The translations under genes and the position numbers were made by a program. From the IMG/VR virus record IMGVR_UViG_2703719303_000002, positions 1 to 64,000 of that record: 64,000 nucleotides of DNA; one strand, written 5' to 3'. Shown here piece after piece: positions 3,016 to 63,333 of this stretch (within the stretch, counting starts at the first letter, position 1; every line of letters begins with the position of its first letter). The stretch comes from a virus. Lineage: Duplodnaviria; Caudoviricetes. The notes under the pieces were generated by a model, which was given only the letters and a program-made list of their open reading frames with translations, did no database searches and was not told the origin of the DNA.

Positions 3016-3038
3016 TTTATCATACTAAACGCTATAAG

Positions 3039-3299
3039 TCATTTTATTTTTTCTTCACATATTTTGAACCCATCCCATAATCCTGTTCTTCTTTCGCCAT
3101 CCTGCATACCGATATATTTACATGCATATATCTCTTTTATACATTTTGTAGTATCGGAAGACCAACATTTATTTTTACATATACTTGATAAATTACAGTT
3201 AGATTTATTGGCTCTTGATTTAATTAGTCTTTTATAAGGGCATCCTAAGCAAAATCGTCCTTTGGGAATATATTTTTTAAAACTCCTTTTTTTCATCAA
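3039..3299 (-). CDS. Cys-rich hypothetical phage protein
   Basis: ORF with RBS GGAG; IPKG-x-C/CPY motifs. Confidence 0.6.
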   Translation of the reverse strand: MMKKRSFKKYIPKGRFCLGCPYKRLIKSRANKSNCNLSSICKNKCWSSDTTKCIKEIYACKYIGMQDGERRTGLWDGFKICEEKIK

Positions 3300-3436
3300 T
3301 TCACTCCTTTTCTAATTGTTCTAGCTTCAAATAATTTGAATTGCGTACTATCCCATATTTTTTTACTTAACTTAACATTTATTTATTAATTCTTCCACTA
3401 CCTTATCGTTAACTATTTTTTTCTTAAAATGTTTTG

Positions 3437-4042
3437 TTAATCAAACATAGGCGATAGATCATATTTCCATCTAGTCTTCTTTTTTTCTTGATTCAAGAGA
3501 ATTCCATGTAAATTTAGCCATTCCATGGATAAGCTTTTTTTATTTTCATCTATAGCTTGCTTGACTTCTCTACAATCTACGCAATAAGTTCTATCTTTTT
3601 CAGATAAATTGAAAATAAATATTCCATTTACATTCTCTTTTTTATGATATTTTATTAGATCATTAATTTGATTAGGTTTAATAACACCATAATTGCTAAC
3701 CTTTTTAGGAATATACTTCTCTATATTTAAAAATTTAAAACTATGCATTACTTGCGCTATTTTGTACCATTGCTTTCTATTTATTTTAATTTTCTTCATT
3801 CGTTTCTTTTCCTTATATTTAGGTGCTATAGGAAAACTAGCACCTTTATGACTTTTTAGTTCAACTAAATGTAACCATTTGTTGGCAAATACAATATAAT
3901 CACATGGATTATTTATGGTGAACCTAGAACTTGTACCACCATTCCATGATGAAGCACTATCTTTTAATCTAATAACACAATATTTTTCTGGAATAGATTT
4001 TTTGAAATCTTCTTCAAATCTTTTACCTGTATTTATAGCCAC
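3437..4042 (-). CDS. recU: RecU-like Holliday junction resolvase
   Basis: GKRFEEDF, NPCDY, ELKS PD-(D/E)xK motif, IKPNQI. Confidence 0.8.
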   Translation of the reverse strand: MAINTGKRFEEDFKKSIPEKYCVIRLKDSASSWNGGTSSRFTINNPCDYIVFANKWLHLVELKSHKGASFPIAPKYKEKKRMKKIKINRKQWYKIAQVMHSFKFLNIEKYIPKKVSNYGVIKPNQINDLIKYHKKENVNGIFIFNLSEKDRTYCVDCREVKQAIDENKKSLSMEWLNLHGILLNQEKKKTRWKYDLSPMFD

Positions 4043-4147
4043 AAAATACCCTCTTTCTGTTGTATTTTTATAAAATACTTTTTTAATATATTAAGAAGTA
4101 TTCATTCAAAATATTGTTTTTACTATCTTTTTGTTAGAAGTAGTCTT

Positions 4148-4303
4148 TTAAATTTCATAATCACCTCCAACAATTTCATCTTTAATAAAGATAGGAATAA
4201 CCCAAAACAAATAGTACGTAGTTCTTTTAATTTTTTGTCTGTCTGCGTAAGAAACTCTTTTATTTATATGCCTTATAAAGTATCTTTCCTTTTTTCTAAT
4301 TAT
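4148..4303 (-). CDS. 51-aa hypothetical protein with ATA start
   Basis: Open frame IIRKKERYF...YLFWVIPIFIKDEIVGGDYEI after AAAGGAAG; overlaps dnaE stop. Confidence 0.5.
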   Translation of the reverse strand: MIRKKERYFIRHINKRVSYADRQKIKRTTYYLFWVIPIFIKDEIVGGDYEI

Positions 4304-7634: not shown

Positions 7635-7931
7635 AAATTTATCATCTTCCTTTCAATATACTAAATGTCACAAGTCCTAATCATTTTTAGTGCAACATGT
7701 TTTATTCTTTAGTCTAATCTTCTTTTCATCAACAGTTATAAAATTTACTATCTGTTATAGTAAAATAACAAATTCCATCAAAATAAGTATGCTTTTCTTT
7801 TATTGTATCTACTATCTGACAATCACTCATTGACACACCACTCCTTGATTTAAAATCTATCTATCCTTTTATATACATTCTCATCTTCTGTATAAAGTAG
7901 ATATCGAGGGTACTCTTTCTTAGTTCCTTTT

Positions 7932-9903: not shown

Positions 9904-9981
9904 AAAATTCGACCTTTCATTGATTTTATTTTACAATTATTTATAAAATCTTAGTTTTATATACTAAATGTCATAAGTTGT

Positions 9982-12252: not shown

Positions 12253-12340
12253 ATACTAATTGTTATTAGTATATTGAATTTTTTTATTCTTTTAACATTT
12301 AGCTATCCTAATATAATAAGGACTACTCTCTATTTACACC

Positions 12341-12525: not shown

Positions 12526-12554
12526 ATATTACCATACTAATTGTCATAAGTCAA
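12526..12554 (-). promoter_or_regulatory. Promoter with 18-bp operator in spacer
   Basis: TTGACT-N17-TAATAT with ACTTATGACAATTAGTAT spanning the -35 and spacer. Confidence 0.75.
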
Positions 12555-12736: not shown

Positions 12737-12862
12737 TTACCATGGTGCATCAGGAAACATTGATAATATTGATATTCCACCTTTAGTTGTTACCAAAACA
12801 CCTATTACTAATGTTAAAACTAGCATTGATAAAAACTTTTTGTGCTTTTTTAAAAAGAACAT
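12737..12862 (-). CDS. RRNPP signalling pre-peptide (41 aa)
   Basis: MFFLKKHKKFLSMLVLTLVIGVLVTTKGGISILSMFPDAPW: basic N-terminus, hydrophobic core, Pro/Trp C-terminal tail; RBS GGGGAG; 11 nt after receptor stop. Confidence 0.88.
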   Translation of the reverse strand: MFFLKKHKKFLSMLVLTLVIGVLVTTKGGISILSMFPDAPW

Positions 12863-12873
12863 ATCTACTCCCC

Positions 12874-14178
12874 CTATGAAATTCTTTTATTAAAATTATA
12901 TAATTCTTTAAGCGTTTGTATGTCTTCTGCTTCTAAATAAAATTCTATCAGTTTACATTCGAGATTTCTAGATATTTTTTTCTCCCTTCCACAGATTACA
13001 AAAAACTCATCCTTCATTTTTGATATACTTTTTTCATCATTTAGTGAAATATATATATCTATTAAATCTGAAAGTATATCTTTTATCAAAGAGTTACGAT
13101 TGAATTTTTTAGCATAATTTAAAGCTATATAATAAAATTTTTCTGCCTTTTTTGTTTCATTCAGTTTTGAATGCATTCTTCCTACTTCACAATAAGTATT
13201 TGGTAAATACTTATTGTTTTGGTTCAAATTATTTATGTATTCATCTACAATATTTAAAACTTCTTTTGCCTTTTCCTTATTGTTAAGTTCCATATGAATA
13301 TAAATTGAATTAATTAAAGCCACTAAATAGCTTTGACAGTTATCCTTATTTATATTATTGATTATTCTTTCATTTAAATCTAGACTTTCAGCATACCTCT
13401 CAAGTTCTCCAAAACAAACAACTTTTTGATTCATGACAGCATAATACCTATCCATACCTATTCTCTGAACTTTTTTTTCAATCTTTTCTAATCTTTTTAA
13501 GGCTTTATCATATTCTTTAAGCTTAATGTAACATAACGCACTATTATACATGAAAATACAATAATATTCTTCATTTATGTTTTTAAAGTTATTTATTGCA
13601 AAGTCACAGCACTTTATGTTCTCATCATATTTGTCCATATAAAAATACACCATGGACAATTTTCGTAAAATAGATATAAGATTATCACTATAAATAGTAT
13701 TATCCATCAATGCTTTGGCTTTTTCGTAATACATACAACTATTATGTAAGTCATTCGTATTAAAAAAGTAATCTCCAGCTAATTCAAAAATAATAATTTT
13801 TTTATCAATTATATTCCAATTTACGGTGAAGTTTTCGACTTCATCTAATTTATTTTGAAACATTCCATCCTTATAAACACTTAAATCCTTAAGTTCTGTT
13901 ATATATCTATCAAGTATTTTATTAGCTTGTGATTCCTCATCCTCTAATAAATACTCTATATCCTCATCAGTCTCTATATCCCGATTGTTACATATTCCCT
14001 GTAAATTTTTAAACATAATTTCAGCTGCATGTCTAGTTAGTCTTGCCTTTCCATGTTCTATCTGGCTTATAAGGTTTCTTGTTATTTCATTTCCCGCTAG
14101 ATCATCTTGATTTAATTTATATTTCTCTCTTAGTTTTTTTAACTTCACACCTGTAGGTAATATCTCATAGACACACAT
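12874..14178 (-). CDS. RRNPP-family peptide receptor (XRE HTH + TPRs)
   Basis: N-terminal LKKLREKYKLNQDDLAG..ISQIEHG HTH; TPR-like helical repeats; adjacent pre-peptide. Confidence 0.9.
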   Translation of the reverse strand: MCVYEILPTGVKLKKLREKYKLNQDDLAGNEITRNLISQIEHGKARLTRHAAEIMFKNLQGICNNRDIETDEDIEYLLEDEESQANKILDRYITELKDLSVYKDGMFQNKLDEVENFTVNWNIIDKKIIIFELAGDYFFNTNDLHNSCMYYEKAKALMDNTIYSDNLISILRKLSMVYFYMDKYDENIKCCDFAINNFKNINEEYYCIFMYNSALCYIKLKEYDKALKRLEKIEKKVQRIGMDRYYAVMNQKVVCFGELERYAESLDLNERIINNINKDNCQSYLVALINSIYIHMELNNKEKAKEVLNIVDEYINNLNQNNKYLPNTYCEVGRMHSKLNETKKAEKFYYIALNYAKKFNRNSLIKDILSDLIDIYISLNDEKSISKMKDEFFVICGREKKISRNLECKLIEFYLEAEDIQTLKELYNFNKRIS

Positions 14179-16011: not shown

Positions 16012-16065
16012 TATCTATTCAGTCCTTTTCAACAGCATTTAATCATACTAACCGTTATAAGTTCA

Positions 16066-19609: not shown

Positions 19610-20212
19610 TTATTTTCTTTTCTTTTTAATAAAAATTATAATAGCAGCTACAATTATAAAAATTATTATAAATGTAATTACATCAAACATAACCGATTTC
19701 ACACCAACATATGACCTATAGCTATAATATCCATTGTTATAAATAGGTTGAGAACTATGAGTTATAGCTCTATATAAAAAATAATTACTCCAAAAATTTC
19801 CTTTATACCCACCATAAGAATTATAACTATAGTGACTATGGTTATGATTGTAATAGTGATTATGAACCACAGTAGTGTGATAAACATTTATATTTTTCCT
19901 AACTATAACATGTTTTTTAATAGTAGGTATTTTAGCTTTTTTACTTTTCTTTGATGCTATTTTAGTTTTTGGTGCTTTACTAAAGTTTCCTGTTTTAAAT
20001 CCATTTCTTAAAGTAGAATGTTTTATACCTGATGAATGAGTAATACTTTTACTACTAAATGAATGTGTAGATATATGACTTGATGAAGAATGAAAAGAAC
20101 TATGAAAACTTCCAGAATGAAACCCACCATGAACTCCCCTTGCGCTAATGCTAACTGCTATAAGTGAAGCAAAAAATAATGAAATAACTAGTAAACTAAA
20201 TTTTTTTATCAT
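19610..20212 (-). CDS. Secreted/membrane-anchored His/Ser-rich protein
   Basis: Signal peptide, low-complexity HGGFHSGSFHSS region, C-terminal TM plus KKKRK. Confidence 0.75.
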   Translation of the reverse strand: MIKKFSLLVISLFFASLIAVSISARGVHGGFHSGSFHSSFHSSSSHISTHSFSSKSITHSSGIKHSTLRNGFKTGNFSKAPKTKIASKKSKKAKIPTIKKHVIVRKNINVYHTTVVHNHYYNHNHSHYSYNSYGGYKGNFWSNYFLYRAITHSSQPIYNNGYYSYRSYVGVKSVMFDVITFIIIFIIVAAIIIFIKKKRK

Positions 20213-20865: not shown

Positions 20866-21203
<338 letters not shown>

Positions 21204-23489: not shown

Positions 23490-23873
23490 TCAAAGAGTTA
23501 CTAATCCTTTACAACAACTATCAAGAATTTGAACGTTTGATAATTGTCTATTAGGAAATTTTTTATTGAAATCATTTATATATTTATCCAAATATTTTTG
23601 CATATCTTCCTCTGGAGAATATGTTTTTATTAAAAAATACATCTCCTTTTCTCTCCTGTTTCCTCGAAAAGTTGTATATCTGAATTTAACCTTATATATG
23701 CTTATAGGAATCTCTTCAAGAAAACTTATAACTTGTCTAGGGTGTATTTTCTTTTTAAAAGTACTTTGAATTTTCTCTTTTGAAAAATCATCTTTGTCTG
23801 GTAAAAAAGTAATACCATCTATAAGCTTCAACATAGCGTTTATATTAGACATCTTAAAAACAGATCCTTTCAT
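23490..23873 (-). CDS. Hypothetical protein
   Basis: ORF track; YTTFRGNRRE. Confidence 0.6.
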   Translation of the reverse strand: MKGSVFKMSNINAMLKLIDGITFLPDKDDFSKEKIQSTFKKKIHPRQVISFLEEIPISIYKVKFRYTTFRGNRREKEMYFLIKTYSPEEDMQKYLDKYINDFNKKFPNRQLSNVQILDSCCKGLVTL

Positions 23874-42413: not shown

Positions 42414-42440
42414 TTGTAAAATACTAATCGCCATAAGTGA

Positions 42441-44317: not shown

Positions 44318-44366
44318 AATTATAGCAATTCGTATGAAAAAAGTCAATATACTAATTGCTATAAAT
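44318..44366 (-). promoter_or_regulatory. Repressor-operon promoter flanked by two inverted operator copies
   Basis: TTGACT(44347-44342)-N17-TATAAT(44324-44319) with extended TG; copies at 44349-44366 and 44318-44335 in opposite orientations. Confidence 0.75.
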
Positions 44367-44373: not shown

Positions 44374-45273
44374 TCAAAATATCTTATTAAGAGGATTGGC
44401 TTCTACTGCATTTTTTAATTGCTCTTTAGAAACATCTGTGTATATTCTGGTTGTAGAAACATCTTCGTGTCCTAATAATTCTTGTAACTGAAATAAATCT
44501 ACTTCTCCACTTTGATATAATAGAGTTGCAAACGTATGTCTTAATATATGTACTAAAACATCATTGTCACCTTTAATTCCTGCATTGTACATGGCATTTC
44601 TGATAGCATTTTGAACAGTTCCTCGTGCTATTCTACCATTTCTTTCTGATAAAAATAGAGCTTTTGTCTTTAAATTTTTTGGTCTTTGTTTAATATATAA
44701 TTTAACAATCTTTTTTGCCTGATCTGTTAAATAAACTACTCTTTCTTTATTTTCTTTACCTATAATTCTTATTTCTTCTTCTAATATATTATCTACATTT
44801 AGGGATATGAGTTCTGATAATCTCATACCTGTTGATAAAAATATTATTATAATACACTTATCTCGAATAGTATTTCTGCTATTAACACTATTTATCAACC
44901 TTTTGCATTCTTCTATACTTAATGATTTTGGCAATCTTTTAGGAATCTTAGGTAAATCTCTTTTGTCTATCTTATCAAAAGGGTTATCTAATACAATTTT
45001 TTCTTGATCTAAATATTGAAAGAATAACTTTAAACTAATAATTTTTCTTCTAATTGTTGTTGCTGCTCTCCCATTTTTTATTAAGTAGTTAATGAATTTT
45101 TTTATCTCCCTATAATCTATATTAACAAAATCCTCATCTTTTGTTATCTGCCTTTTTTTGTTTTTCATATATCTAAACCATACTTTTAAATCATTTAAAT
45201 ATTGTTTTCTAGTTCCTTCAGACTTAACTAAAAGATTTTTTTCATACATTTCAAGTCTTTCTTCTACCTTCAT
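44374..45273 (-). CDS. Tyrosine recombinase (XerC/D-like, intact active site)
   Basis: TGMRLSEL, GKENKER, HILRHTFAT, LLGH..TTRIY. Confidence 0.93.
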   Translation of the reverse strand: MKVEERLEMYEKNLLVKSEGTRKQYLNDLKVWFRYMKNKKRQITKDEDFVNIDYREIKKFINYLIKNGRAATTIRRKIISLKLFFQYLDQEKIVLDNPFDKIDKRDLPKIPKRLPKSLSIEECKRLINSVNSRNTIRDKCIIIIFLSTGMRLSELISLNVDNILEEEIRIIGKENKERVVYLTDQAKKIVKLYIKQRPKNLKTKALFLSERNGRIARGTVQNAIRNAMYNAGIKGDNDVLVHILRHTFATLLYQSGEVDLFQLQELLGHEDVSTTRIYTDVSKEQLKNAVEANPLNKIF

Positions 45274-45422: not shown

Positions 45423-45710
45423 TTAAGCACACCTTACTTTCAGTGGAAGAAAGAATCTGTTATCATGCGATTCGATTTCTTTAAATAAGAACTTCAAATT
45501 TTTATGTTTACCATGGTGATGCATACCCACCCCTTGGCGTGTATTTTCATGATATAATACAATTCCTTCCTTCATCACCTGATTTCTTTTAATATACCAC
45601 GTATCTAATTTACTTTTTATCCTAATAAAATTCCCTATAAAATCATATTTAAAATTATATATTCTACATAAATTTTCTATTTCCTTTTCTTTATTATTCA
45701 ATACTGTCAC
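45423..45710 (-). CDS. Hypothetical protein
   Basis: ORF; LYHEN..H..IESHD. Confidence 0.65.
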   Translation of the reverse strand: MTVLNNKEKEIENLCRIYNFKYDFIGNFIRIKSKLDTWYIKRNQVMKEGIVLYHENTRQGVGMHHHGKHKNLKFLFKEIESHDNRFFLPLKVRCA

Positions 45711-46752
45711 CTTCTTTAAAAATCTCTTCTATTTTTTTGTTGATTTCTTCATCTTGATTAGAAAAATACTCGTTATAGTCTTTTTTAAGTTCCTCTAATC
45801 TAATCTTGATAGATTCTGATCTTGCCGAACCTGAACCAGCAGCAGAATTATATTTTTCACTTATAGAAGCTCTTCTTTTTCCACTGTAAAATTTTAATAA
45901 CCAACTTGCTAGTTCTTCTATAGTTTTATCTGATTTAATTACTATAGGTATTATTGTAAGTAAATGCGTTCTTGTAAGAATTCTTTTAGCTATCTTTTTA
46001 TGTTCTTTATCTTCTGTATTTATTGCTTTCCATATATCTAATATTTTACTATATGCTTTTTTTATCTCTTCTTTTTGTTGTTCTGTAAATTCTACATCTT
46101 GCATAAGCGGTCTTATTTTTTTAGTTTCAAAACTAGGGTTTTCTGTATATAACATTGCATACGTCTTTATTACAATATCTTCATTTGTATATTTATTTAC
46201 CTGCTTTAATGTTAGAGCATTTTTAAATATTTCATGATTACCTAATTCCCTTATTGCATCAAAACTTTTGGCTTTAACTCTTGTTAATTCTATTGCTGAT
46301 AAAGCTTTTCCATTGTTTAATCTATAAAACATTTCACTTACTTGATCATCTGATAAATCCAAAAAGAAATATACTGTTAAAGAGTAATCTTTTACTCTAT
46401 CTTGTAATTCCTCTGGTAATTCCTCAAAACTCATTCCATTTACATCAATTGATTCTCCATCTTCTAACTCAACTTCTTCTATTCCATCAAGTTTAAACTT
46501 TCCTTCTATAAATTCCTTAATTGCATGACAACGCTGTTTTCCATCCAACATATCATATGTTTTATCTTCATTTCTTGCTGCATAAAAAGCTGGAATAGGA
46601 TAATTCTGAAACATTGAATCTATAAGCAATATCTTTTTATCAGTTTTCCAACATAAACCACGTTGTACTGAATTGTCAAATCCAAGAGTACCCTTGTCCA
46701 TCATTTTTGCAATCTGTTTAGCAGTCCATTGTATATTTGATTTTTTTAACAT
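45694..46752 (-). CDS. DUF262 (ParB/GmrS-like DGQQR) protein
   Basis: QRGLCW, LIDS..YPIP, LDGKQR, FYRLNNG. Confidence 0.85.
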   Translation of the reverse strand: MLKKSNIQWTAKQIAKMMDKGTLGFDNSVQRGLCWKTDKKILLIDSMFQNYPIPAFYAARNEDKTYDMLDGKQRCHAIKEFIEGKFKLDGIEEVELEDGESIDVNGMSFEELPEELQDRVKDYSLTVYFFLDLSDDQVSEMFYRLNNGKALSAIELTRVKAKSFDAIRELGNHEIFKNALTLKQVNKYTNEDIVIKTYAMLYTENPSFETKKIRPLMQDVEFTEQQKEEIKKAYSKILDIWKAINTEDKEHKKIAKRILTRTHLLTIIPIVIKSDKTIEELASWLLKFYSGKRRASISEKYNSAAGSGSARSESIKIRLEELKKDYNEYFSNQDEEINKKIEEIFKEGDSIE

Positions 46753-50070: not shown

Positions 50071-50095
50071 TTTACATTACCTCTTTCTTTATGTT

Positions 50096-50129
50096 TAACG
50101 TATTATACGTTACTTAATTTTTTTGTAAA
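50096..50129 (-). promoter_or_regulatory. parM promoter with palindrome over -10
   Basis: TTTACA-N16-TATAAT; TAACGTA-TTA-TACGTTA at 50096-50112. Confidence 0.55.
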
Positions 50130-50155
50130 AAAATAAGAGACTATATAATAATCTC

Positions 50156-53100
50156 TTATCGTTTATTCCAATTTTCAAGCATCAATTCCAATTTTGCCTT
50201 ATGCAGCTTTTCTTCAAAACTCATATTTTTTTCTTTTTCTTTGTCCTCTTCTTCCCTAATCTCACATACTCCTTCTAAGCAGCTTAACCTTGCTGCAACT
50301 TCTATTGGCGATTTTTTTAAAAAATCCAACTTTTTAATAAGGTCTCTAAAGTCTTTACTAAAAGTCATTTGCTGTTCAATACCATACAATGTTTCTCCTA
50401 AGTCGCTTAATAATTTCTTTTGTTCATGAATTAAATGTTTTTTCATTTCTTCATCAAATTTATTTATATGATCTTTCATAGTATACACTCCCCATACAAA
50501 ATACTATTTAATAACATTATAATACACTTAGAAACATATATAAATATATTTATCTTGCTTTTGAAAGAATTAAGTTTTCTATATTTATAAAATATTTTTT
50601 CTTACCATATTGAAGATAGTCTAAATCTTCAAGTTCTTTATCTTGTCTTAATCTAGGATTAAAATCATAAAAATCATTTATAGTAAATCTCTTACTTGAA
50701 AAATCCAATATTCCTCTCAATGAAACATTATAATTTGATTTATACTCAACTTTACCTATATCTTTTAAATATATCTTTATTGATTTTTTTCCTCGCAACC
50801 ATTTGCCTAATTCTAATAATTCTACAAATGTTTTATTACCTTTTCCATGCTTTACTTGTTCTAAAGCTAATAAAATCAATAATTCTATCTTACTATAAAA
50901 AACATACTTCCAATCATCTTCTGTAGATAATTCTTTTGTTAAAACATTAAATTCTATAGTCTTATTATTAAATTGAAATTTAATAATACCATCAATTATA
51001 TTACCAAAATCCCAATTGTTTACACAATGTTTTTCCTCTTCAAAGTTATATGTGAATCTATAAAAATTTCGAAAAAAATACTCATCATAAAAATTAATTT
51101 TGTTTATATTATTGTCAAGAAAAACTTTTAATACTTGTTTCTTTTTTTCTTCTAGCTTAGTAGCTATAATTTTTGATATATCTACTAAGTCCCTTTCTCT
51201 ATAATCATCTGATTTACACGAACTTACATAATCCATATAAATTTTATTTGGCTGAGATTTGATAATAAAACCAAATAAAGAATAGTCTTTTCTATTATGA
51301 CTACAACTATTCTCTAACAACAAAACTATTTCTTTTCCTTCTACTTTTAAAAGCTTTTTATCCATAATTTTATCCTTCTTTCTATTTAAATACTAACTGT
51401 TAATAGTAGACTTCTAATCTTCTAAATTAATTTCACATATACTTTCTACCCACTTAACAATGGTATCACCAAAGCCGATAAGACCATTCCACGCAGTAAC
51501 TTCATTTAGGACTCTTGACTTACTCCATTCCATAATGATATTGTCTTTTGAGGTATCATTCTTTTCTAAACCTAATCTTTGCCTGCAATCTTCCATTATA
51601 TCTTGTGAATACTTTTCCATTTATAATAACCCCTTTCTTATCTCCATGGTATCTTCAAGTTGTGATAACCTACTTAATGACTCCCTGAGTTTCTTTAATA
51701 AACTATCTTTTTTATCTTTTGATATTTTACCCTGCTTAAATGCGGCATTAACGACTATAAAATTTTTATTTATATATCCTTCTACCTCTAATTTTTCCTT
51801 TTTAATATCCTGTAACATAATTATTCTTCCTCCTTAAGCTCATCTGCAAATGCTTGAATCTCAACACCATTTGATAACCTAACATTATACATTTTTCCTA
51901 CCTCTTTTTTATCATATAAACTTTTATTAAGTTCATTTAATATTTTACACCCCGCCCATTATATTCTATTAAATCCGTCTGAGTTGTGTTAAACCTAATT
52001 TTATAATTTTCTTCTCTTGTCATTTTATCTTCTCTCCTTATTATAAAAAATTACTTTTATTTGCTTTTTTATAATAATTGTTTTAATCCCAATCCTCAAA
52101 AATTTCTTCTTTACTCAATAACCCATTTAGATACAATCCACCTAAACATAATTCCATGTCTTGCTCATTACAATCACAAGTTCTGTTGTTATGTTTATCA
52201 ATATATTCCTGTAATAATTGTTCTTTTTCAACCTCACTCATTTTTAACACTCTCCTATTTTTGTTTTCCCTATCTTCTAGCAGCACTTTAAACAGAATAT
52301 GATCATAAATAATCCCTAAACCCATAAGCGCCACGAATAACATTATTAGCCCTCCTGTTCTTTTAACTCATCAACTTTATATAAAGGCGATAAGCCATAA
52401 GAATTAATACTATTATTTATCTGTTTCTTTATTTCTTCTAAATGACTTTTTAAATTTTTTAGTTCCCCTTTTAACTTTTTTCTTGTTTTTTCACTGCCAA
52501 TTAAAAGCACACCTGTTTTACCTTCCGTAATAGAATAAACACCTCCACACTTTTCTATAAATAAATCTAAGCCTTGCCATTTTAAATATTCACCTTTAGA
52601 AAGCTTAAAGCTTGTCTTATTAATATCTTGCTTATCTCTCACAAGCTTATAATAAGAGCGCATATCTTTGTTATGCTGCTGTCTCTTTTTATATTCTTGT
52701 ATGCCTTTGTAGTCTTTACTGCTTACGTTATTTAAAATCGTATACGTGCCTTTATCTGTTAGCGGTAACTTAATGCCAGTAAGACAATAAAAAACCTTTT
52801 TACTTGTTTTATTACCATTCCATAAAACACGTTTTAAAGCTTCTTTACATTTTGGGTTATCTATATTAAGCGTTAATATTATTAGCTTTTTAAGATAGCT
52901 TTCATTGTAGCTGTTCGACTCATTTAAAAACATATCCTTTGCAAGTTCTAATTTCCCATTATCTTTAAAATTTAAAATTTGATTATCCAACCAACTTTTA
53001 AACTGATTTTCTTTATTTTTATTCTTTTCTAATACTTGCTGTTCTTTCAGTTTCTTCTCCTTTTCTTCTTGCTGTTCTTTTATCTTCTCTTCCTGTTCCT

Positions 53101-56100
53101 GCTTTAAATAAATTTTAATATCTTCTATAGTTTTAAAGTTTTTCTTAAGATATAAGGCAAATTTATATAACGTCTTTGTGGTTTTTATATAGCCCTCATT
53201 ATTTCCAATACCATAAATATTTTTAGGCTTTGTAAGTGTTCCATCCCTCTTATAATGTTGTTCATTTTCGTTGATATAAGTAGCGTAACCACATTGAAAC
53301 ATACGATAAATGATAAAATCTTTGCCCTTCAAGATATAACTATTGTCTTTTATGTGCATACGATATAATGTGTTTAAAGCACTTTCAACCTTACATTTTT
53401 GAAAAGGCTTTAAGCTTTTAGTAAACCCTAAGTTACTATTGTTTAACTCTAAAAAATCCATTATTACTCCTCTTTTCTATTGTTTATTAAACTCCATTGT
53501 TGTTACATCTAATATTCTTCATTGTCTTCTATGTAATTTGGTGCATAATTAGTATATAAAACTACATCAAAAAGGTTGTCGTATACTTGAACATCTGCAA
53601 CCTCTTCTCTTGAGCATAATATGTTTTCAATTTCTTCTATACTCTTCTTATCTAATTTACAATTAAACTTTTCCTCTAATTGTTGATTTTCAATTGTATA
53701 TTGAAAACCACTCATACTGGAATCGCTTTCTTCTTGAACACATTCTATTATATATTTCGAAATTTTTTCATTAAGTGTTCTAGGAAGCCATGCTTCAACA
53801 ACACTTATAATTTCATCATTTACTAAATGACTATTTATTCTTTGTTTCCATGCATAAAGTTGTAGTCCATTTAAAACATCTTTATTCCTATTTTCACTAT
53901 CTTTGTATTTATATATAACTGTATACAATTTATTTAGTACCATTTTGTTATTCCCTCTTTTCTTTATACTAATTGTTATAAGCTATTTATTTTATCTTTC
54001 TTATACCTATCTAAATCAAATCCTTTAAAATTAAACGAAAACCCGCAAAATATTTCTTTATAGGAATAGTTTATATAATGCCTCTTGAAAAATTTAATTA
54101 ATCGTGTTGGATCAAGTATAGTAATATCTTGACCTTTTAAAAAATCATATACACTTTTTTTAAAATTATAAGAATACATATCTAAACCATAACGTATTTC
54201 ATTTTCAACCTCATTTTCTAATAGCAATATATTCACCTCTAATTTGCATATATTATGTTTACTTTGAAACTTCAATTATATTTTCATATAAGTTCTTCTA
54301 TTGCTTTTAATTGAGTTTTATAAAATTGTTTTTCTTGTTTATCCAGTTCTTCTTCAAGTGATATTCTATGTATAATTAATTTTAAGACTTCTATAGCTTC
54401 ATCTATGTTATTATCAAGTTCATATAACAACGTATCTAAAGAACTATTACTATCATTTTTCATCATCATATCAATAACATTTTTATACACTATATTTTTT
54501 ATTATATATTTATTCATTTCATTACTCCTATCTTTTATTTATCTCTTTAGTCTTCCAAATTAAAGCTACTTCTTAATATATTTAGCGCATTTATAGTAAT
54601 TAATCTATCTTGTTTAAAACTGGATTTCTTATAGTCTTGGCTTATCTTATTTTTATATCCTTTACCTAGGTTATTTAATAAATCACAACAACTATAATCT
54701 TTTCTTACGCCTATAGCCTTATATTCACTTCCATTAATTTTTTTATACTCTTCTATAGCTTCCTTAATATTTAAATTTTCTACTACTTTGTTTGCAGTAA
54801 ATACATAAAATTTATACATAACAATACTTCCTTTCTTATAAACTCTATAAGACACATACACTTAATTATGTGCCTTAACAATTTATAAAATCGTTCTTTT
54901 ATTCTAATGTGTAGATAAGTATACTAAAAAGCTTCTTCTTCTATCTTTTAACCATTTTATGAGTTTTTCACAAGTACCTTTCTTTACTAAATAATAAGTT
55001 TTTGTATCATGCTCATATTTGTATTCCTTTATTTTGCCGTTTTTATAATTCACCCTTATTAAAGCATTATGTATATATATTTCTTCCACTTTATCATAAT
55101 CGAGCACTTCATCAAGTTTAAAAGTATACTCGAATTCCTCTCTTTTAAATTCCCAATACTCCGAATCTATTACTACCCATATAATTAAATCATCTTTCAT
55201 TTTTATATTCTCCTTTACTAAAGAATTTTCTATATATTGTATTTTTCTATTGGATACTTAAGGGTATATACGTAACCATCTTTTTATTTTTATCGTCATA
55301 CACCCTTTTACATTCTCTTAATCCATATTTTAAATTCCCATTACAATACAACGTATCTTTTATACCTTCAATTTTTTCGTACTCTTCTTTAGTTTCACAA
55401 TAAACTTTTTCACTTTTATAAATCCACACTGTAAAACATTTATCATTAAACTTACTCTTTTCTATGTTTCCTTTATATGCTTGAATCCATGCTGAAAAGA
55501 TTTCATCATTCTTCCAAGCTCCATATCTACTAGTATATTTGTAATCATCTTCTGGATTAATTGTTATATAAATTTTGTCATAATATTCTGTTGTGTATTT
55601 TAAATTTGGAATTTCTTCATATTTCCATACGTTTACTATTGCTTTAAAAGTTATGGCACCATTTCCGCAGCCGCCACAATGTCCCCAATCACGAAAAGAT
55701 TTTTCCCGTTCACCTATTAATTTTAATTTTGTTGGGATATAAGCCCAAGCGCCACCACTTGTTGAGGTGTTTATCTCATTAAAAGCAGAACAAAGAAATG
55801 GTACATATGGTTCTTCACATATGTATATTTTTTTATCTTTGACATATATATTTTCAATATGTGCATTTTTATAGTAGTCTCCATTTTTTGTTGTGTACTC
55901 CACTATATCACCAACTTGTGGAAAATTTTTATTTCTACTTCCTTCAATCTTCTTTACCCAACTGTTAGCTTTTTCCACGTCAGATTCATTTAATGTATGT
56001 TCATAATCATATGACTTATTTAGCTCCCTTAATTTTTCTAAAGTATACATTTTTATTCCTTCTTCCTTTTTTAAGATTTTATTAGTAACTTTCAACATGA

Positions 56101-57430
56101 GTAAATGACTTATTTATTACTTCTTCAATTTCTTGCTTATGATGAAAAACATACTCATTAACAATTTTCATATTTTTACTTGTTACCATACTTTCAGGGT
56201 CAAAAGATTCACAAGCTATATAAAAAGTACTTTCATCTTTACATTGATTTATAAATGCCATTTTTAAGGCTTTAGGAGCTTTGCTATTTTCTTTTATAAA
56301 TGTTTCGTATTCCCACAAACTCATGTTCATTGGTGTTAATTCATTTCTTATAATGTCCAATTCAAATATTTCTAAAGGTTGTTTTATTAAGCATTCCAGT
56401 GTATATTCTTCTCTTAAATAACTTGGTAAGCATGAATTTATAAAGATTTTTTCTATTTCTGGAATGTCTTTTAAATTATCGCTTTCAAATTCCCATATGC
56501 TAAATAATATTTTTACACCCTTTTTCTCTATTTTAAAATATCTTCTATTACCTTCTTTAGCTAACTTTTTTATCATAATTTTATCCTTCTTTCTATTCAA
56601 ATACTAACTGATATAAGACGTTTAATTTGATTCGTCCTATTCCATTATTTTTTTTATTGCTAAATCTAAAGCATTTAATAACCTTTTATCATTTTGTACT
56701 TCTTCATATGTCAAACTTAAACTATCTAGCGTGTCTCCTAATTCATATGTGATACTATATTCATGATTTCCTAATTCATAATAGAACATATCAAAAATAA
56801 AGGTATCATTTTTCATAGCTTCCTTTATTTCCTTATCATGACGATTAAGCATTTTTTTAAGTTTGGCTGAATCCGTTCTCTTATAAAAACCCCCAGTATT
56901 TCCAAACTTATAAATTTTGTTTGTTTCTGATGGTTCAAGTCCTAATTTTTTCATACCTTCTTTGAATTGTTCTTTAGAAAAGGCAAAGAACATTGGAAAA
57001 TTATTAACCTCTTTTTGATGTTTTCTTTTCATTTCTATGTATTTATTATTCATTTTTAAAACTCCTTTATTATATTTTATTTTTAATGCTAATTGTCATA
57101 AGTGGACTATTCTAATACTCTAAACTCTAATTCTATTTTTCCATCATAAACATAAGCTTTATATGTTGCCATACTAAAAGTTATTTTTAAATAATCTTCT
57201 GTACCCATTCCATTGTTAAAATATTTAACCTTGAACCCAAATTTATCACGTCTTAATATTTTAACTTCTGTAATGCTTTTTGTTAATACATCTTCCATTA
57301 TTCTTTTAATTTCTTTTTTAATAAATTCTCTTTGTTCTTTTTTTGTCATCTTATTATTATCTTCCGCCTTATCATATGTCTTTACAAAATTAAATAATTC
57401 TTTAAAAGTATTCATAATAATAACCTCCAT
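50156..57430 (-). other. Early-region cluster of ~16 hypothetical CDSs (incl. 50550-51365, 52346-53461, 53509-53943, 56082-56600, 56637-57053, 57107-57430)
   Basis: Co-oriented ORFs with strong RBSs, punctuated by operator copies. Confidence 0.7.
55247..56098 (-). CDS. DUF4121-like protein
   Basis: PQVGD..ICEEPYVPF..STSGGAW..F.DWGHCG.CGNGAITF.A.V..W.Y. Confidence 0.65.
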   Translation of the reverse strand: MLKVTNKILKKEEGIKMYTLEKLRELNKSYDYEHTLNESDVEKANSWVKKIEGSRNKNFPQVGDIVEYTTKNGDYYKNAHIENIYVKDKKIYICEEPYVPFLCSAFNEINTSTSGGAWAYIPTKLKLIGEREKSFRDWGHCGGCGNGAITFKAIVNVWKYEEIPNLKYTTEYYDKIYITINPEDDYKYTSRYGAWKNDEIFSAWIQAYKGNIEKSKFNDKCFTVWIYKSEKVYCETKEEYEKIEGIKDTLYCNGNLKYGLRECKRVYDDKNKKMVTYIPLSIQ

Positions 57431-57858: not shown

Positions 57859-58644
57859 TTTTAACACCCTCTTTACTTATGTATTATATCATAAAATATA
57901 AATATCTTTTATATTCTAATTTAAAAATACACCTGTTAATATATTCTTAAATTAGAATATAAGACTATAAAAATGCACACACTTACAGCATGATTTTACA
58001 AATATAATATCAATTACTTTAAACTTATTTTTATTTACACAATAAAATATAAGGTAATATATAATTATTTAGATGTCATTTTTATAATCTTATAATAGTG
58101 TATTAGTTTAATTTTAAAAATATTTTTCATTCTAGTAATTAAAGAACATGGATATATAAGGACTATATATATTCTTTTATGAATTGTTTTGTCATAGTTT
58201 TTTAAAATTAAAAATATAGAAAATAACATTTTAACAATTGAAAATTTACAAACAACGATAGAATAAGTAATTGAACCAATAGAGTTATAAAACGGTCGTT
58301 GTAATAAATCGTGCATTCCTTTCACCCTTCCAACCTATTTTCCAAGGTGTTTTCTTATGCTAGTGTTATACACTTTTAAATATCTATGACCATTATCAAA
58401 TAATAATCGCCACGATATAGCATAGTATAAGTAGCCTATATGAAGCATAGTAATATACTTATTTTTCAAAGTGCGTTATGACCTGATGAAATAATCGAGC
58501 CTTACAATTTAATTAGTCCGTAATTTGATGTAAATAATTGTATGCTACCATTGTATTACTGTATAGAATTAACTATTATTTTATGTTATTGTTATATGCT
58601 TACTGTTGTAAGTCGTTTAAGTTGTTTCCCTCAAGCACATGTAT

Positions 58645-58673: not shown

Positions 58674-59543
58674 TGTGTATTTTAGGTCGAATACTTATTG
58701 TGCTAACTGTTATAAGTCATTAATTTAAATTAGCTATGTATACCTGCCTTTTTCGTTTGTTTACTAAGTCGCCTATAAAAGCTATTTATAAATTATAAGT
58801 AATACTGCTATATACTCATATAAGGCTATTTAACACGTGTTTATATTTGATATAGAATTGTACTACTATAGTATTAAAAATCAATTATAGACGTTTTAAG
58901 CTGAATATATAGTCATAATCTATTTATATATCAATAGTATATTAACCTATAGTATATATTATAGTGTATATCATTAGATATAAGATTATCATTAAATTTA
59001 AGAACCTATACAATATATAGTACTAATATGTATGTATTATTCAGCCATAAAAAATACTATAGTTTTTTTATTCCACTATTAATAAAAACAAGTAAACATT
59101 ATTTTTTTGAAAAAGTAATCAAACAAAAAAATATATTAACTAATAACAAATATTAGTTCATAAAGATTCAACTATAGCTATTTTCTGACTACAACACCCT
59201 TTTTTTACAAGAAATTACTTTACATTAGATTAAATATGTATTTAATTCAATGTTTTTCACTCAAACCCTCTACGCTAAGAATATCAATGTGTTTTAAGAA
59301 TTATTTATTGTCATGATCGTAGGAAAATAAAGCTATTTGCTGCAAGAATTACTACATAGGGGGGTACTTTACGTTTCAACGGGTTTCGGGTTTTCAAAAT
59401 TTCCCCACCCCTAGTCTCTTCTCTTACTCAGTTAAAATTTAATATTATATACAGTAATTAAAACGGGAAAAAACTCTAAATCCTTTTACATACTTAATTT
59501 TTTATATACTTTTCTAACTTTTTTGTTTTTTTAATACCCTTTC

Positions 59544-59778: not shown

Positions 59779-59807
59779 TTGACTTGTAACACTTAGTATG
59801 ATAACAT
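59779..59807 (+). promoter_or_regulatory. Rightward promoter with 18-bp operator in spacer
   Basis: TTGACT-N17-TAACAT containing ACTTGTAACACTTAGTAT. Confidence 0.75.
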
Positions 59808-60821: not shown

Positions 60822-60982
60822 TAAAGAATATGAATTTTATTAATTATCTTAAATAATTAACTTTTATTCTTTTTTCTTTGAACCATCTCTTTGTATTTCC
60901 AGCAAAGCTGATAAATCCAAAGACCTTCGCCAAAGAAAAAGAACCAAAAAAGAAAGCTCCTTATATTGTTTTCTTTTATATT

Positions 60983-61104
60983 AAATAAAAGTTGGCTATT
61001 TAAAGATACCTATAATAAATAAATATATATTATATAAATATAGATATTTTTAAATAGCCAACTTTTATTTTTTAGAATACTATTAGCTGATTTTAAATAG
61101 CCAA
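60983..61104. repeat. 22-bp perfect inverted repeat around an AT-rich core plus a third partial copy (candidate origin)
   Basis: AAATAAAAGTTGGCTATTTAAA(60983-61004)/TTTAAATAGCCAACTTTTATTT(61049-61070); TTTTAAATAGCCAA at 61091-61104. Confidence 0.8.
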
Positions 61105-61120
61105 GAAAGGATATGATATT

Positions 61121-63301
61121 TTGAATAATGATAAGCAGCATTATACTTTTACGATAATACCTATTAGGAAATTATTCTACAATGATGCAAACAATTTTGG
61201 TATATATACATGTACCATAGAAGACAAACAGGATGTTTTTAATCCTAAAAATACCGTTATAAGCGGTACTATGCCATCTTTAGAATTAGGCAAAGCTTAT
61301 AAAGTTATGGGGTTTGAATTTATTCATAAAAAATATGGACAGCAATTACAGATAGAAAATGTTGAAATTAAAAAATTAAACTCTTCAGCAGATGAAAGGA
61401 ATTTTTTAAAGAATATAGTTACTCTAAATCAATATCAAGAGATTATAAAAATTTATAAGTCTCCTATAACTGCTATAACTTCTGGAACTTTTAATATAAG
61501 TAAAGTGAAAGGTATTAAAGAAAAATATTTTGAAGTTTTAAAGAAAAAAATAATAAAAAATTTAGAATACATGAATTTTTATTCTGAATTTACAAAAATA
61601 GGTTTTAATTTTAATCAAATGAAAAAAATTATAGATTTTTATAAGGGCGGAGAATTATCTTTACAAATAATTAATAAGAATCCTTACAAGTTGTATATGG
61701 ATATAAAAGGCTTTGGATTTAAAACTGTAGATAGTATAGCTTTAAGTATGGGTATTGAACCTGATAGTAATTTTCGAACTAAAGCAGCTATATTATATTG
61801 TTTAGAACAGAAAGAGCAGAATGGCGACACTTATGCTTTTATAGAAGATATTCATCAGCAAGTTGAAAAGCTACTTAATATTAAAATAAATGATATAAAA
61901 AACTATTTGGATAAAGAATATTATTATTTTGATGTTTTAAGATTAGCAAAAAGAACAACTTGGGAAACAGAAAAGGACATTTCAGTAAGATTAAAAGAAA
62001 AAATAAATAATTCGCAAAAACTTTTTACGAATAATGTTATACATTTGATTCCTGAAATAGAACGAATTTTAAGAATAAAGTATGATGATAAGCAAAAAGA
62101 ACTTTTTTATAAAATAAATGAAAATAATATATTAGTATTAACTGGGTTTGCTGGTACAGGAAAATCTAGTGTATTAAATGGATTACTAAATTTATTTGAT
62201 AAAAAAAATATAACATATAAGCTAATGAGTCCAACTGCAAAGGCAGCAAAAAGAATGGAAGAATGCACAGGTAAAAAAGCTAGTACAATTCATAGAGCAT
62301 TAGGTTTAGCAGAAGGAAAATTTTTAGTAAATGAAAAAAATCCCTTTGCCGAAGATGTGATTATAATAGATGAGACAAGTATGGTTGACATATATTTATT
62401 CTTAGCGGTTTTAAAAGGTATAAAGAATACAACAAAACTTTTATGTTTAGGCGATTATGGACAATTAGAAAGCATATCAGCAGGAAATGTATTATTTGAC
62501 ATGATTCAAGGAGGAATTCCATGTGTAAAATTAGAAAAAATTTTTAGACAAAAGGAGGATAGTTCTTTATTAAATGTAATTACAAATATAAGGAATGGAG
62601 ATAATCCTTTAAAAAATACTCACAAAACTTATTTAGAATTAGGACGAGACTGTAAATTTTGGTTGGGTAAAAAAGAACAAACTTTATCAAGAGTTTTACT
62701 TTGCTATAAAGAATGTTTAAAACATTTTTCAAGGGAGGATATAATGGTTTTATGTCCAATGAAAAAAGGAAATTCAGGTGTAAATAAATTAAATCAAGAA
62801 CTACAAAAAATAGCAAATTCTCAAAATACTGAGGAACTAAAATTAAAAGATTGTGCATACAAAAAAGAAGACTTGGTTATGCATATAAAAAATGATTATA
62901 ATGCAAATATATTTAGTGAAGATTGCAAAGATACAATAGCTAAAGGTATTTTTAATGGGGATGCTGGTAAAATAGAAAAAATAGATTTAGAAAACCAAAA
63001 ATTATACGTGTCTTATGATTCAGGTATTGTAGAATATGATAATTCTAATCTAAATGAATTAATGTTATCTTACGCATTGACTATTCACAAAGTACAAGGA
63101 TCTCAATCTAAAGTTGTAATAGTAGCCTTAGATATGTCTCATTATAAAATGTTAAAAAGAAGTCTATTATATACCGCTGCTTCAAGATGTGTAGAATTAT
63201 TAATTTTTATATGTGATCCAAAAGCATTTAGTATTGCACTAAATAATAATCAAGTTACACACAAAAACACTTTTTTAGGAGAACTTTTGAAAATAAGTTG
63301 A
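61121..63301 (+). CDS. recD2: RecD2-like SF1B helicase
   Basis: HKKYGQQ N-domain, GFAGTGKS, SPTAKAA, DETSMVD, GDYGQL, YALTIHKVQGSQ. Confidence 0.95.
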   Translation: MNNDKQHYTFTIIPIRKLFYNDANNFGIYTCTIEDKQDVFNPKNTVISGTMPSLELGKAYKVMGFEFIHKKYGQQLQIENVEIKKLNSSADERNFLKNIVTLNQYQEIIKIYKSPITAITSGTFNISKVKGIKEKYFEVLKKKIIKNLEYMNFYSEFTKIGFNFNQMKKIIDFYKGGELSLQIINKNPYKLYMDIKGFGFKTVDSIALSMGIEPDSNFRTKAAILYCLEQKEQNGDTYAFIEDIHQQVEKLLNIKINDIKNYLDKEYYYFDVLRLAKRTTWETEKDISVRLKEKINNSQKLFTNNVIHLIPEIERILRIKYDDKQKELFYKINENNILVLTGFAGTGKSSVLNGLLNLFDKKNITYKLMSPTAKAAKRMEECTGKKASTIHRALGLAEGKFLVNEKNPFAEDVIIIDETSMVDIYLFLAVLKGIKNTTKLLCLGDYGQLESISAGNVLFDMIQGGIPCVKLEKIFRQKEDSSLLNVITNIRNGDNPLKNTHKTYLELGRDCKFWLGKKEQTLSRVLLCYKECLKHFSREDIMVLCPMKKGNSGVNKLNQELQKIANSQNTEELKLKDCAYKKEDLVMHIKNDYNANIFSEDCKDTIAKGIFNGDAGKIEKIDLENQKLYVSYDSGIVEYDNSNLNELMLSYALTIHKVQGSQSKVVIVALDMSHYKMLKRSLLYTAASRCVELLIFICDPKAFSIALNNNQVTHKNTFLGELLKIS

Positions 63302-63304
63302 TTA

Positions 63305-63333
63305 TTGACTTATTGCAGTTAGTATGTTATTAT
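63305..63333 (+). promoter_or_regulatory. Promoter with 18-bp operator in spacer
   Basis: TTGACT-N17-TATTAT containing ACTTATTGCAGTTAGTAT. Confidence 0.7.

Follow-up and report, generated by a model that had tools for sequence, protein, structure and literature searches.

A dispersed 18-bp word, co-oriented with the genes, as the predicted operator of an integrase-fold repressor candidate in an SPbeta-like prophage of Clostridium acetobutylicum

Phage P1 encodes C1, a monomeric repressor whose asymmetric 17-bp operators, more than a dozen in number, are dispersed and lie at promoters. Mycobacteriophage L5 reportedly uses gp71, a small helix-turn-helix protein, together with 13 bp stoperators, for which a polar block to elongation is said to have been demonstrated. 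The closest characterised system with the layout described here is that of SPbeta, where the repressor MrpR was bound at 10 SPBRE ChAP-seq peaks (PMC10516654) and the RNA polymerase YonO initiates transcription of the late operon from a single site (PMC5467207). SroF of phage phi3T is a monomer that reads 24 bp of an asymmetric box (bioRxiv 10.1101/2025.11.27.690993). When SPBRE was re-derived, we obtained 11-13 copies in 134 kb, all co-oriented with the genes; some are embedded in promoters (-35/spacer/-10) and some abut the Shine-Dalgarno sequence (SD), as at yonX, yopM and yopV. In our own scan, no SPBRE was found in the SPbeta YonO start region.

The stretch of DNA analysed here (the window) makes up the first 64 kb of a record of 103,353 bp, and the phage is an SPbeta-like prophage of ~102 kb from Clostridium acetobutylicum. 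Read in gene orientation, its repeated 18-bp word is ACTTATRRCRNTTAGTAT, which matches the window 25 times with at most two mismatches, where 1.00 match was expected and the largest number in a shuffle was 4. Scanned with a weight matrix, the full 103-kb record gave 28 strong sites, each of at least 18 bits, with 0.6 sites expected from the background at 14 bits or more, and three weak extra sites (94979, 73446 and an inverted one at 44318). A previous sequence-only reading of the window had listed an array of ~23 sites; all 23 coordinates were recovered, and two unlisted sites, 20148 and 24292, were added. The array is not prophage-wide, as that reading had called it, because the real sites end at 76.7 kb and the weight-matrix scan found none in the tape-measure region (77-103 kb). 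SPBRE and the word here are both asymmetric (15-18 bp across the two), dispersed over the early region and co-oriented with the genes, but the sequence and the Clostridium host are different. The 28 sites in 77 kb, and still more the numbers in the relatives below, far exceed the 10 ChAP-seq peaks in the 134 kb of SPbeta, a point against the operator reading given at the end.

The word is confined to the prophage. In the 4.1-Mb genome of the lysogen (G033), 21 of the 22 matches fall within C1:1,296,317-1,369,546 and one lies elsewhere, which bears out the expected enrichment over host DNA; 400 other Clostridiaceae genomes have 0-6 matches each, and other viral and genome contigs carry the word as single copies only. 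Distant relatives of the phage have private words in the same architecture, with 59 and 85 copies per genome and a density of one per 1.5-2 kb. The earlier proposal of SPBRE-like operators that have a sequence code of their own is supported.

All 28 strong sites share the direction of local transcription (two-sided P about 7e-9): 22 are on the minus strand at 3-58.7 kb and six on the plus strand at 59.8-76.7 kb, in each case the strand of the genes there, and the sole counter-oriented copy is the degenerate one at 44318. The claimed orientation bias was thus confirmed by a systematic scan of the whole record. In the relatives, sites share the strand of the genes in every fetched stretch, one inverted copy excepted, and a strand flip coincides with the flip of gene direction at the switch point of G402 (one of two flips confirmed). 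The word had further been described as having a pseudo-palindromic core. This holds for position pairs 2-15, 3-14 and 5-12, which are complementary in 24-27 of the 28 sites, but not for pairs 4-13 and 7-10, complementary in just 3 and 1 of them; the palindrome is partial and the site is therefore asymmetric overall. A pseudo-palindrome would also be unnecessary, because SroF-type repressors bind asymmetric boxes as monomers, and such binding to one long asymmetric box would account for the directionality of the word.

Even when the longest possible ORFs are assumed, 24 of the 28 sites fall outside them (coding fraction 0.865; P = 1.6e-17). Three of the four ORF-internal sites become junction sites with realistic start codons; the added site at 20148-20165 (minus strand, 26.4 bits) lies within the longest ORF and is followed 13 nt downstream by an SD and an ATG. 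The only truly intragenic copy is the other addition, 24292-24309 (minus strand), the weakest strong site with 18.2 bits, in the 3' part of a RecJ-like gene. A location at gene junctions or in intergenic DNA, asserted before for every site, is therefore correct for nearly all of them, with 24292 as the exception.

Six sites sit in exact and fixed register within TTGACT-N17-(-10) promoters, as the sequence-only reading had stated. On the minus strand these are 12534-12551 (-10 TAATAT, 26.1 bits), 21183-21200 (TAACAT, 23.9 bits), 27057-27074 (TACAGT, 24.0 bits) and 40066-40083 (TATTAT, TG-extended, 25.5 bits), and on the plus strand 59782-59799 (TAACAT, 23.4 bits), which is the first rightward site, and 63308-63325 (TATTAT, 23.2 bits). 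The site at 3022-3039 (minus strand, 24.2 bits), 5' of a phage sigma-factor gene, has ATGACT as its -35, in ATGACT-N17-TAAAAT, again as described. Beyond the exact six, three sites are near matches. Weak hexamers flank the minus-strand sites at 16045-16062 (TGAACT / TTAAAT, 26.0 bits) and 42421-42438 (ATCACT / TACAAT, 25.8 bits). Two more minus-strand sites, 58596-58613 (20.3 bits) and 58700-58717 (with ATGACT, 23.9 bits), lie in a divergent control region.

Since the phage encodes both a YonO-like single-chain RNA polymerase with DxDxD kept (65772-68207 of the record) and a SigF/G-like sigma factor (2332-3015), the word could instead be a promoter, or part of one, for either of them, with starts at or inside its 3' end. 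Like T7-type promoters, it is co-oriented with genes, 5' of them and private to each phage; its 3' end, TAGTAT, looks like a -10 element, and the density in the relatives would fit per-gene promoters. Nevertheless, the start region of the late operon that YonO transcribes in SPbeta (PMC5467207) is devoid of SPBRE, and SPBRE is bound by a repressor (PMC10516654). The six copies in exact register belong to promoters of the host type, 18 contiguous conserved bases are unlike a two-box sigma promoter, and the tape-measure region has no site. At several sites, moreover, the SD starts 3 nt past the end of the word, which leaves no room for a leader unless transcription started inside it. We therefore consider a phage promoter unlikely.

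About two thirds of the sites (~18 of 28) are without promoter hexamers, a difference from SPbeta and also from P1, whose operators are found at promoters and not at most gene junctions. Most of the sites outside the promoter class lie 11-33 nt 5' of a start codon, directly before the SD, and placement in the relatives is likewise before ribosome-binding sites. On the minus strand, the site at 7658-7675 (22.6 bits) is 23 nt ahead of the start of a Pol III alpha gene, lacks hexamers and is followed by an SD, and that at 38983-39000 (23.3 bits) is 11 nt ahead of the start of a Sak4-like gene. The SD begins 3 nt past the word at 12253-12270 (22.6 bits), which is locally near-palindromic, and at 23872-23889 (25.0 bits), and 6 nt past it at 33063-33080 (26.4 bits). 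The same junction class, also on the minus strand, includes 9961-9978 (24.6 bits), 51390-51407 (19.2 bits), 53966-53983 (24.7 bits), 56601-56618 (19.8 bits) and 57086-57103 (25.5 bits).

This proximity to ribosome-binding sites, down to 3 nt from the SD and repeated in the relatives, and the orientation fixed to transcription would also suit a function of the word at the RNA level, be it as translational operator, enhancer or processing signal. We hold this to be very improbable. The sites gave no hairpin signal (mean MFE -2.1 kcal/mol, mean z -0.23), no RNA-binding candidate was identified, and the two opposed copies at the promoter of the repressor operon, described below, make sense only on DNA. 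In the promoter-class copies the whole word is conserved, even though transcription is predicted to start downstream of it; this speaks for a role at the DNA level. Even so, placement so close to ribosome-binding sites goes beyond what a simple operator model needs, and the word might have another function there.

The candidate for the protein that reads the word as an operator is a 289-aa protein (42896-43765, minus strand), the second gene of a leftward operon. The first gene (43749-44306, minus strand) encodes a 185-aa protein of no known family that is a conserved partner in relatives, and the third (42441-42917, minus strand) a 158-aa protein, also of no known family. From its sequence, the operon is predicted to have a sigma-A-type promoter at 44319-44347 on the minus strand, TTGACT (44347-44342)-N17-TATAAT (44324-44319). 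Upstream lies a gene for an intact tyrosine recombinase (44374-45273, minus strand; Pfam Phage_integrase 9e-39), in the position of SPbeta YopP. The order of recombinase, ~185-aa protein and SroF-like protein is common to the relatives L167 and L168 and mirrors yopP-yopQ-yopR of SPbeta. The AlphaFold model of the 289-aa protein (pLDDT 94) has the two-domain (CB + CAT) fold of tyrosine recombinases, and its top Foldseek matches are MrpR (8a0a), phi3T SroF-DNA (9rd5), YopR (8bj6/8bpz) and SroF-Sar (9rgl). The best TM, 0.62, was to 9rd5, with an identity of only about 15%. Xer, Cre and Tn1549 Int follow the repressors, and the E-values of the catalytic recombinases are just ~10-fold worse. By sequence, phmmer and profile (hmmsearch) searches of the PDB returned nothing and the likeness to MrpR is marginal, but the family profile aligned with SPbeta YopR over 182 columns (hhalign probability 91%, E = 1e-6).

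In a low-confidence hhalign alignment with the adjoining intact recombinase, GMR is changed to GLK, HxxRH to RxxRM, GH to GY and the tyrosine to leucine, so that Arg-I, both histidines and the nucleophile are replaced; the C-terminus contains no later tyrosine. Judged by this alignment, the protein seems no longer to have the catalytic residues. Fold, Foldseek matches, residue replacements and profile match support a reading of the 42896-43765 protein, which the sequence-only reading had named for binding tests, as a probably non-catalytic, integrase-fold homologue of MrpR/SroF, and as in SPbeta, the gene of a repressor candidate apparently without catalytic residues lies beside that of an intact recombinase.

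The operon promoter carries a double site: a copy at 44349-44366 (minus strand, 20.7 bits) stops 1 nt before the -35, and the degenerate inverted copy at 44318-44335 (plus strand, 12.6 bits) covers the spacer and the -10. An inverted double site at the repressor operon distinguishes this phage from SPbeta. RNA contigs from three studies over this operon end at 44229-44292, just inside the predicted promoter, which is a weak hint, and have the highest k-mer depth of the neighbourhood, although contigs cannot show starts, ends or levels. Another phage protein might use the word in a role other than repression: an anti-termination or processivity factor could be loaded there in an ops-like manner, or a ParB-like DUF262 protein could serve in genome organisation or partition. 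Strict polarity and dispersed spacing do resemble those of polar signals, a GmrSD_N/DUF262 protein is encoded in the sro-like cluster, and the tie between the word and the 289-aa protein is not direct. We nonetheless find this improbable, given the special double site that marks the SroF-like operon's promoter, a placement at junctions and in fixed promoter register that is not random, and the repressor-operator nature of the set with the same layout in SPbeta (PMC10516654). The 289-aa protein most likely binds the word.

Other SPbeta-like genes encode a large serine recombinase, Pol III alpha, RecJ, a DnaB-like protein (weak match), Sak4 and the YonO homologue. Both here and in SPbeta, the gene of the YonO-type polymerase lies downstream of a site. 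For a possible peptide-signalling input of the arbitrium (AimR-AimP) kind, the phage encodes an HTH-TPR receptor and a 41-aa secreted-type pre-peptide, and the receptor has no significant sequence similarity to AimR. The LexA box GAAC-N4-GTTC is absent from the record, and its one-mismatch matches were all within coding sequence where checked. A LexA-controlled antirepressor arm, reported for all analysed Bacillus SPbeta-like phages, was thus not found by the LexA-box search, and, unlike in phi3T, no Sar-like, LexA-controlled gene was recognised; the phage may have a Sar homologue without a LexA box. In the relative L168, a perfect LexA box precedes a 73-aa gene.

Taken together, we think it probable that the word is the operator of a master repressor, the 289-aa protein, and the clostridial counterpart of SPBRE in silencing the prophage. 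The repressor would clamp as a monomer round one long asymmetric box, like SroF and MrpR, although the phi3T SroF box has 26 bp and the conserved core here 18 bp. At six sites, or nine with the near matches, the box takes in the 3' half of a sigma-A -35 (TTG|ACT) and runs on across the promoter's spacer, the geometry foreseen for promoter occlusion, and a repressor bound there would exclude RNA polymerase. At its own operon, the pair of boxes, one immediately before the -35 and the other, inverted and degenerate, over the -10, would let the lysogen express the repressor under negative feedback. Most of the remaining sites, inside operons and near ribosome-binding sites, could add redundant and possibly polar blocks to read-through transcription.

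A role of the promoter-less majority as roadblocks or stoperators is something we infer from co-orientation, from the absence of terminators before these sites and from one weak RNA-contig hint. The site at 42421 lies 2 nt past the last stop of the repressor operon (42441-42443); no terminator was found in the sequence ahead of it, and in one run the X18 contig depth shifts at 42466-42481, 28-43 nt upstream of it. Like P1 C1, the candidate would recognise, as a monomer, an asymmetric word repeated over a dozen times through a large phage genome, although the folds are unrelated. With the stoperators of L5 and cluster A the array shares ~two to three dozen asymmetric sites that are oriented with transcription and mostly fill short gaps between genes, a density of roughly one per 2-3 kb, and one operator at an early promoter. 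An elongation block, demonstrated for L5, is only a putative role of the clostridial sites. Since the candidate has an integrase fold and not the helix-turn-helix of gp71, the array is an analogue of cluster A stoperators and not a member.

In clostridial SPbeta-like phages, the monomeric integrase-fold repressor may even act mainly as a polar roadblock at the promoter-less sites before ribosome-binding sites, about 18 here and probably dozens in the relatives, and less by promoter occlusion, an idea that we put forward tentatively and with some doubt. If true, mycobacteriophage stoperators would have been convergently reinvented on a different protein scaffold, and the roadblock role would extend to those SPBRE copies that adjoin an SD in SPbeta.

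The sequence-only reading had described an oriented array of an 18-bp candidate operator in this prophage. When the window was scanned for its pattern with up to two mismatches, 25 matches were obtained, compared with 1.00 expected and a maximum of 4 in shuffled sequences. All the coordinates listed in that reading were recovered, and two further sites, 20148 and 24292, were added. Read along the genes, the consensus is ACTTATRRCRNTTAGTAT, with C2, T3, C9, T12, A14, G15 and A17 invariant. A weight-matrix scan of the whole record cleanly separated 28 sites at 18-26 bits, with 0.6 sites expected by chance at 14 bits or more; three weak sites followed (94979, 73446 and the inverted 44318), and lower scores were noise. 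The orientation bias held in this systematic scan, with 28/28 strong sites pointing the same way as the genes around them, 22 leftward between 3 and 58.7 kb and 6 rightward between 59.8 and 76.7 kb, the genes themselves being read leftward to ~59 kb and rightward beyond. The placement at gene junctions and in intergenic DNA was likewise confirmed: 24 of the 28 sites lie outside even the longest ORFs, non-coding DNA making up 13.5% (P = 1.6e-17), and, when realistic start codons are applied, 24292 is the sole intragenic site. As for the proposed pseudo-palindromic core, the partial dyad ACT.A...T.AGT is real, yet it is broken at pairs 4-13 and 7-10. The array does not extend over the entire prophage as had been claimed, because no real site was found by the weight matrix at 77-103 kb, where a 2052-aa tape-measure-like ORF is located.

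The virus record is a single one of 103,353 bp, and the window, its first 64 kb, has ~27% G+C. The same element is present in the Clostridiaceae lysogen genome G033, at about 1,270,330-1,372,141 of a 3,940,880-bp chromosome; this region of C. acetobutylicum ATCC 824 is reported to harbour a large 'cryptic' prophage. Both record ends are joined in the Logan contig L043, with a crossover at about positions 426-436, and therefore the element also occurs excised or circular. The record itself also runs across this junction; the crossover (window 1-436 plus the record end; L043, L185, L186) falls within the 3' end of the serine-recombinase gene, and in the lysogen chromosome the host flank past the recombinase end has a 97.7% copy of record bases 1-304. 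The gene set is SPbeta-like, with a large serine recombinase, Pol III alpha, RecJ, Sak4, a YonO homologue and, as a weak match, a DnaB-like protein; nucleotide searches of plasmids and phages gave no relatives of the element. The enrichment in prophage versus host, which had been regarded as the decisive test, was clear: at up to one mismatch G033 has 22 matches, 21 of them in one 73-kb stretch corresponding to the prophage and 1 elsewhere in the 4.1-Mb genome, while 400 sampled Clostridiaceae genomes besides the lysogen have 0-6 matches each. Motif scans of IMG/VR and of the species-genome collection returned only scattered single copies of the exact word, attributable to chance.

Two classes of site could be distinguished. 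In six of them (12534, 21183, 27057, 40066, 59782 and 63308), a TTG directly 5' of the word gives a -35 hexamer TTGACT, and a -10-like hexamer follows exactly 17 bp later; near matches to this TTGACT-N17-(-10) arrangement are those at 3022, 68524 and 42421, so that the promoter geometry was found exactly as first proposed. The word in these sites spans the -35 through the spacer and is fully conserved although it lies 5' of the predicted start site, which argues for a function at the DNA level. Most other sites lack the hexamers and are located 11-33 nt ahead of an SD-bearing start codon, and in several of these junction-class sites the SD starts 3 nt past the word. When the flanks were inspected by eye, most of these sites were not preceded by any clear terminator hairpin plus T-run, and they thus appear to sit inside operons. 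There was no signal at positions -10 to -5 for a -35 element that would make TAGTAT a -10. If the word acted at the RNA level instead, the promoter-class copies would be left unexplained; this reading receives no support from folding, by which no RNA hairpin was found at the sites.

No other intergenic region resembles that at 44.3 kb, which has a near-consensus promoter, TTGACT-N17-TATAAT, with one good site just upstream of the -35 and a degenerate inverted copy over the -10, the latter (44318) being the only counter-oriented copy of the genome. This predicted promoter would drive an operon of 185-aa, 289-aa and 158-aa proteins. The 289-aa protein (42896-43765, minus strand) is the candidate repressor; a different DNA-binding protein may bind the word instead, with lower probability. 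Its Phage_integrase score is below threshold, and it has ~70 distant homologues. A model built with the homologue alignment (pLDDT 94) had as best solved-structure matches MrpR (8a0a), phi3T SroF with DNA (9rd5, TM 0.62), YopR (8bj6/8bpz) and SroF-Sar (9rgl), and catalytic recombinases ranked after these SPbeta-family repressors. The family profile matched SPbeta YopR with an hhalign probability of 91%. In a low-confidence alignment with the adjacent intact recombinase (44374-45273), the protein has Lys at the catalytic Arg-I, lacks both His and has Leu at the position of the Tyr nucleophile. No recombinase or MrpR match was obtained in PDB sequence and profile searches with this protein, nor any match by tblastn against the phage collection or in single-protein searches of viral and genome contigs, and a word-index protein search retrieved nothing besides its query. 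The order recombinase, ~185-aa protein and SroF-like protein recurs in distant relatives and parallels yopP-yopQ-yopR of SPbeta. Upstream of both the SroF-like operon and the intact recombinase, and belonging to one co-directional cluster with them, is the gene of a GmrSD_N/DUF262 (ParB-like) protein (45694-46752, minus strand).

Repressors of the SroF/MrpR type were characterised only in 2023-2025, and in the literature consulted they are discussed for the Bacillus phages SPbeta and phi3T alone, where about ten sites are called promoter sites. MrpR of SPbeta occupies ten SPBRE peaks and acts as a repressor of PaimR and PyosX (PMC10516654). SroF of phi3T binds as a monomer that encircles DNA, and of its asymmetric 26-bp box it reads 24 bp; it is displaced by Sar, a LexA-controlled DNA-mimic antirepressor; the same study makes no mention of Clostridium, site orientation or roadblocks (bioRxiv 10.1101/2025.11.27.690993). 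Binding of an asymmetric box by a monomer would explain the direction of the sites, and the partial dyad would be unneeded. When SPBRE was re-derived from the ten bound regions, it was obtained as ACAAAWAATATGTATAT, with 11-13 copies that are all co-oriented with the gene downstream; several are embedded in TAGACA-N17-TATAAT and three directly abut an SD (yonX, yopM, yopV). The architecture seen here is therefore that of SPbeta, but it is built on another word, present in about three times the number of copies. These data support the main line of the earlier proposal, namely a putative SPBRE-type immunity regulon of a clostridial phage with its own sequence code and promoter occlusion. Such a regulon would combine a SroF/MrpR-type candidate repressor with a stoperator-like distribution of sites, in Clostridium.

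The main rival explanation is that the word is a promoter for a phage polymerase or a phage sigma factor, since the phage encodes a homologue of YonO as well as a SigF/G-like sigma factor. The former (811 aa; plus strand, record 65772-68207, or L001:1772-4207 in the part beyond the window) matches SPbeta YonO by BLASTP (2e-11) and keeps the metal-binding DxDxD motif, as DQDSD versus DNDGD in YonO. It is located downstream of sites 63308 and 65179, much as yonO is downstream of an SPBRE in SPbeta. The sigma-70-family factor (2332-3015, minus strand) is closest to SigF/SigG/SigB models and lies directly downstream of site 3022. However, SPbeta YonO transcribes the late operon from a single start (PMC5467207), and SPBRE is missing from the surrounding region. 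Moreover, the exact register of the word within host-type promoters, the short distance at which an SD can follow it and the absence of sites from the last 26 kb speak against such a promoter.

Nine loci from relatives were fetched with the family alignment from large viral contigs (up to 141 kb), and in several of them a word private to the relative is repeated with this same layout. In whole records, ACAATTAAAYAATAAT at up to two mismatches has 59 copies in G402, a complete 126-kb provirus, and 85 in G403, compared to 1 and 6, respectively, for the reversed-pattern control, and strand usage flips once per record. In every fetched stretch (spanning the flip in G402; on either side of the switch region in G403) the sites share the gene strand, except for one copy in an inverted pair shortly after the SroF-like gene. 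In the relative L174 (11420-11490), where a single copy of its private word is counter-oriented, this copy belongs to an inverted pair that surrounds a TTGACA-N17-TAGAAT promoter shortly after the SroF-like gene, an arrangement that recalls the 44318/44349 pair. A minority of the relatives' sites are TTGACA-N17-TAnnnT promoters, and in many others an SD is only a few nt away. An immunity determinant would be expected to pair each divergent repressor with a private word, whereas a signal read by conserved host machinery would not. Loci L167-L169 were left out of motif discovery because they are too short, and L172, L173, L176 and L177 had no clear repeated word at the threshold used. In L178:11430-15764, nine co-oriented copies of AGRCACAYACAGCAAA occur among tRNA-like sequences; this word was rejected as an operator because it sits in a tRNA cluster, and its copies may instead serve a tRNA array as promoters or as processing signals.

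The 40-48 kb stretch is present in at least 20 public RNA libraries of 8 studies, which were read as assembled contigs. The contigs of the SroF-like operon (42.4-44.3 kb) had, in three runs, each from a different study, the highest k-mer depth of the neighbourhood, and their end at 44229-44292 falls a short way inside the predicted promoter. In a single run, depth changed from 173 to 13 at 42466-42481, 28-43 nt upstream of the site directly after this operon, and no terminator is present there. As contig depth is a poor measure, the pattern is only a weak hint. The region 50.7-57.3 kb had almost no contig cover in libraries X18 and X20, missing cover not being evidence of silence. High contig depth (22-70, three studies) was seen at 58092-58638, just downstream of sites 58596/58700, where a small RNA or small gene may be expressed in the lysogen. 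Contigs at 50089-50496 cover a 110-aa ORF (50156-50488) of no known family and without a following site, with a depth of 108 in X18 and a bin of 124 in library X16, both far above their neighbours; this ORF is a candidate lysogeny-expressed gene.

An HTH-TPR receptor of 434 aa is directly followed by a 41-aa ORF (12737-14178, minus strand) that has the features of a secreted-type pre-peptide, namely a hydrophobic helix and a basic N-terminus, and that ends in ...SMFPDAPW. The two are predicted to form an RRNPP/arbitrium-type peptide-signalling pair; similarity of the receptor to SPbeta AimR was not significant. The phage of the window differs from the Bacillus systems in that a search for a LexA box found none and the receptor is not an AimR homologue by sequence. 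In the relative L168 (1-164), a gene for 73 aa lies a few genes ahead of that for the SroF-like protein, and a perfect LexA box (CGAACACACGTTCG) separates it from a sigma-A-type promoter. The 73-aa product is a candidate antirepressor of the Sar type, for which the phage of the window showed no equivalent.

The range of SroF/MrpR-type systems would thereby be extended to Clostridium, with operator sets that can reach 28-85 strictly oriented copies per genome. The private word of each phage would provide a simple sequence marker for immunity groups, and, C. acetobutylicum being an industrial model organism with public RNA libraries, the predictions can be quickly checked. The most interesting reading is that of a roadblock: with most sites outside promoters, a block to elongation may be the main way in which this class of repressor silences a 100-kb prophage, as in L5.
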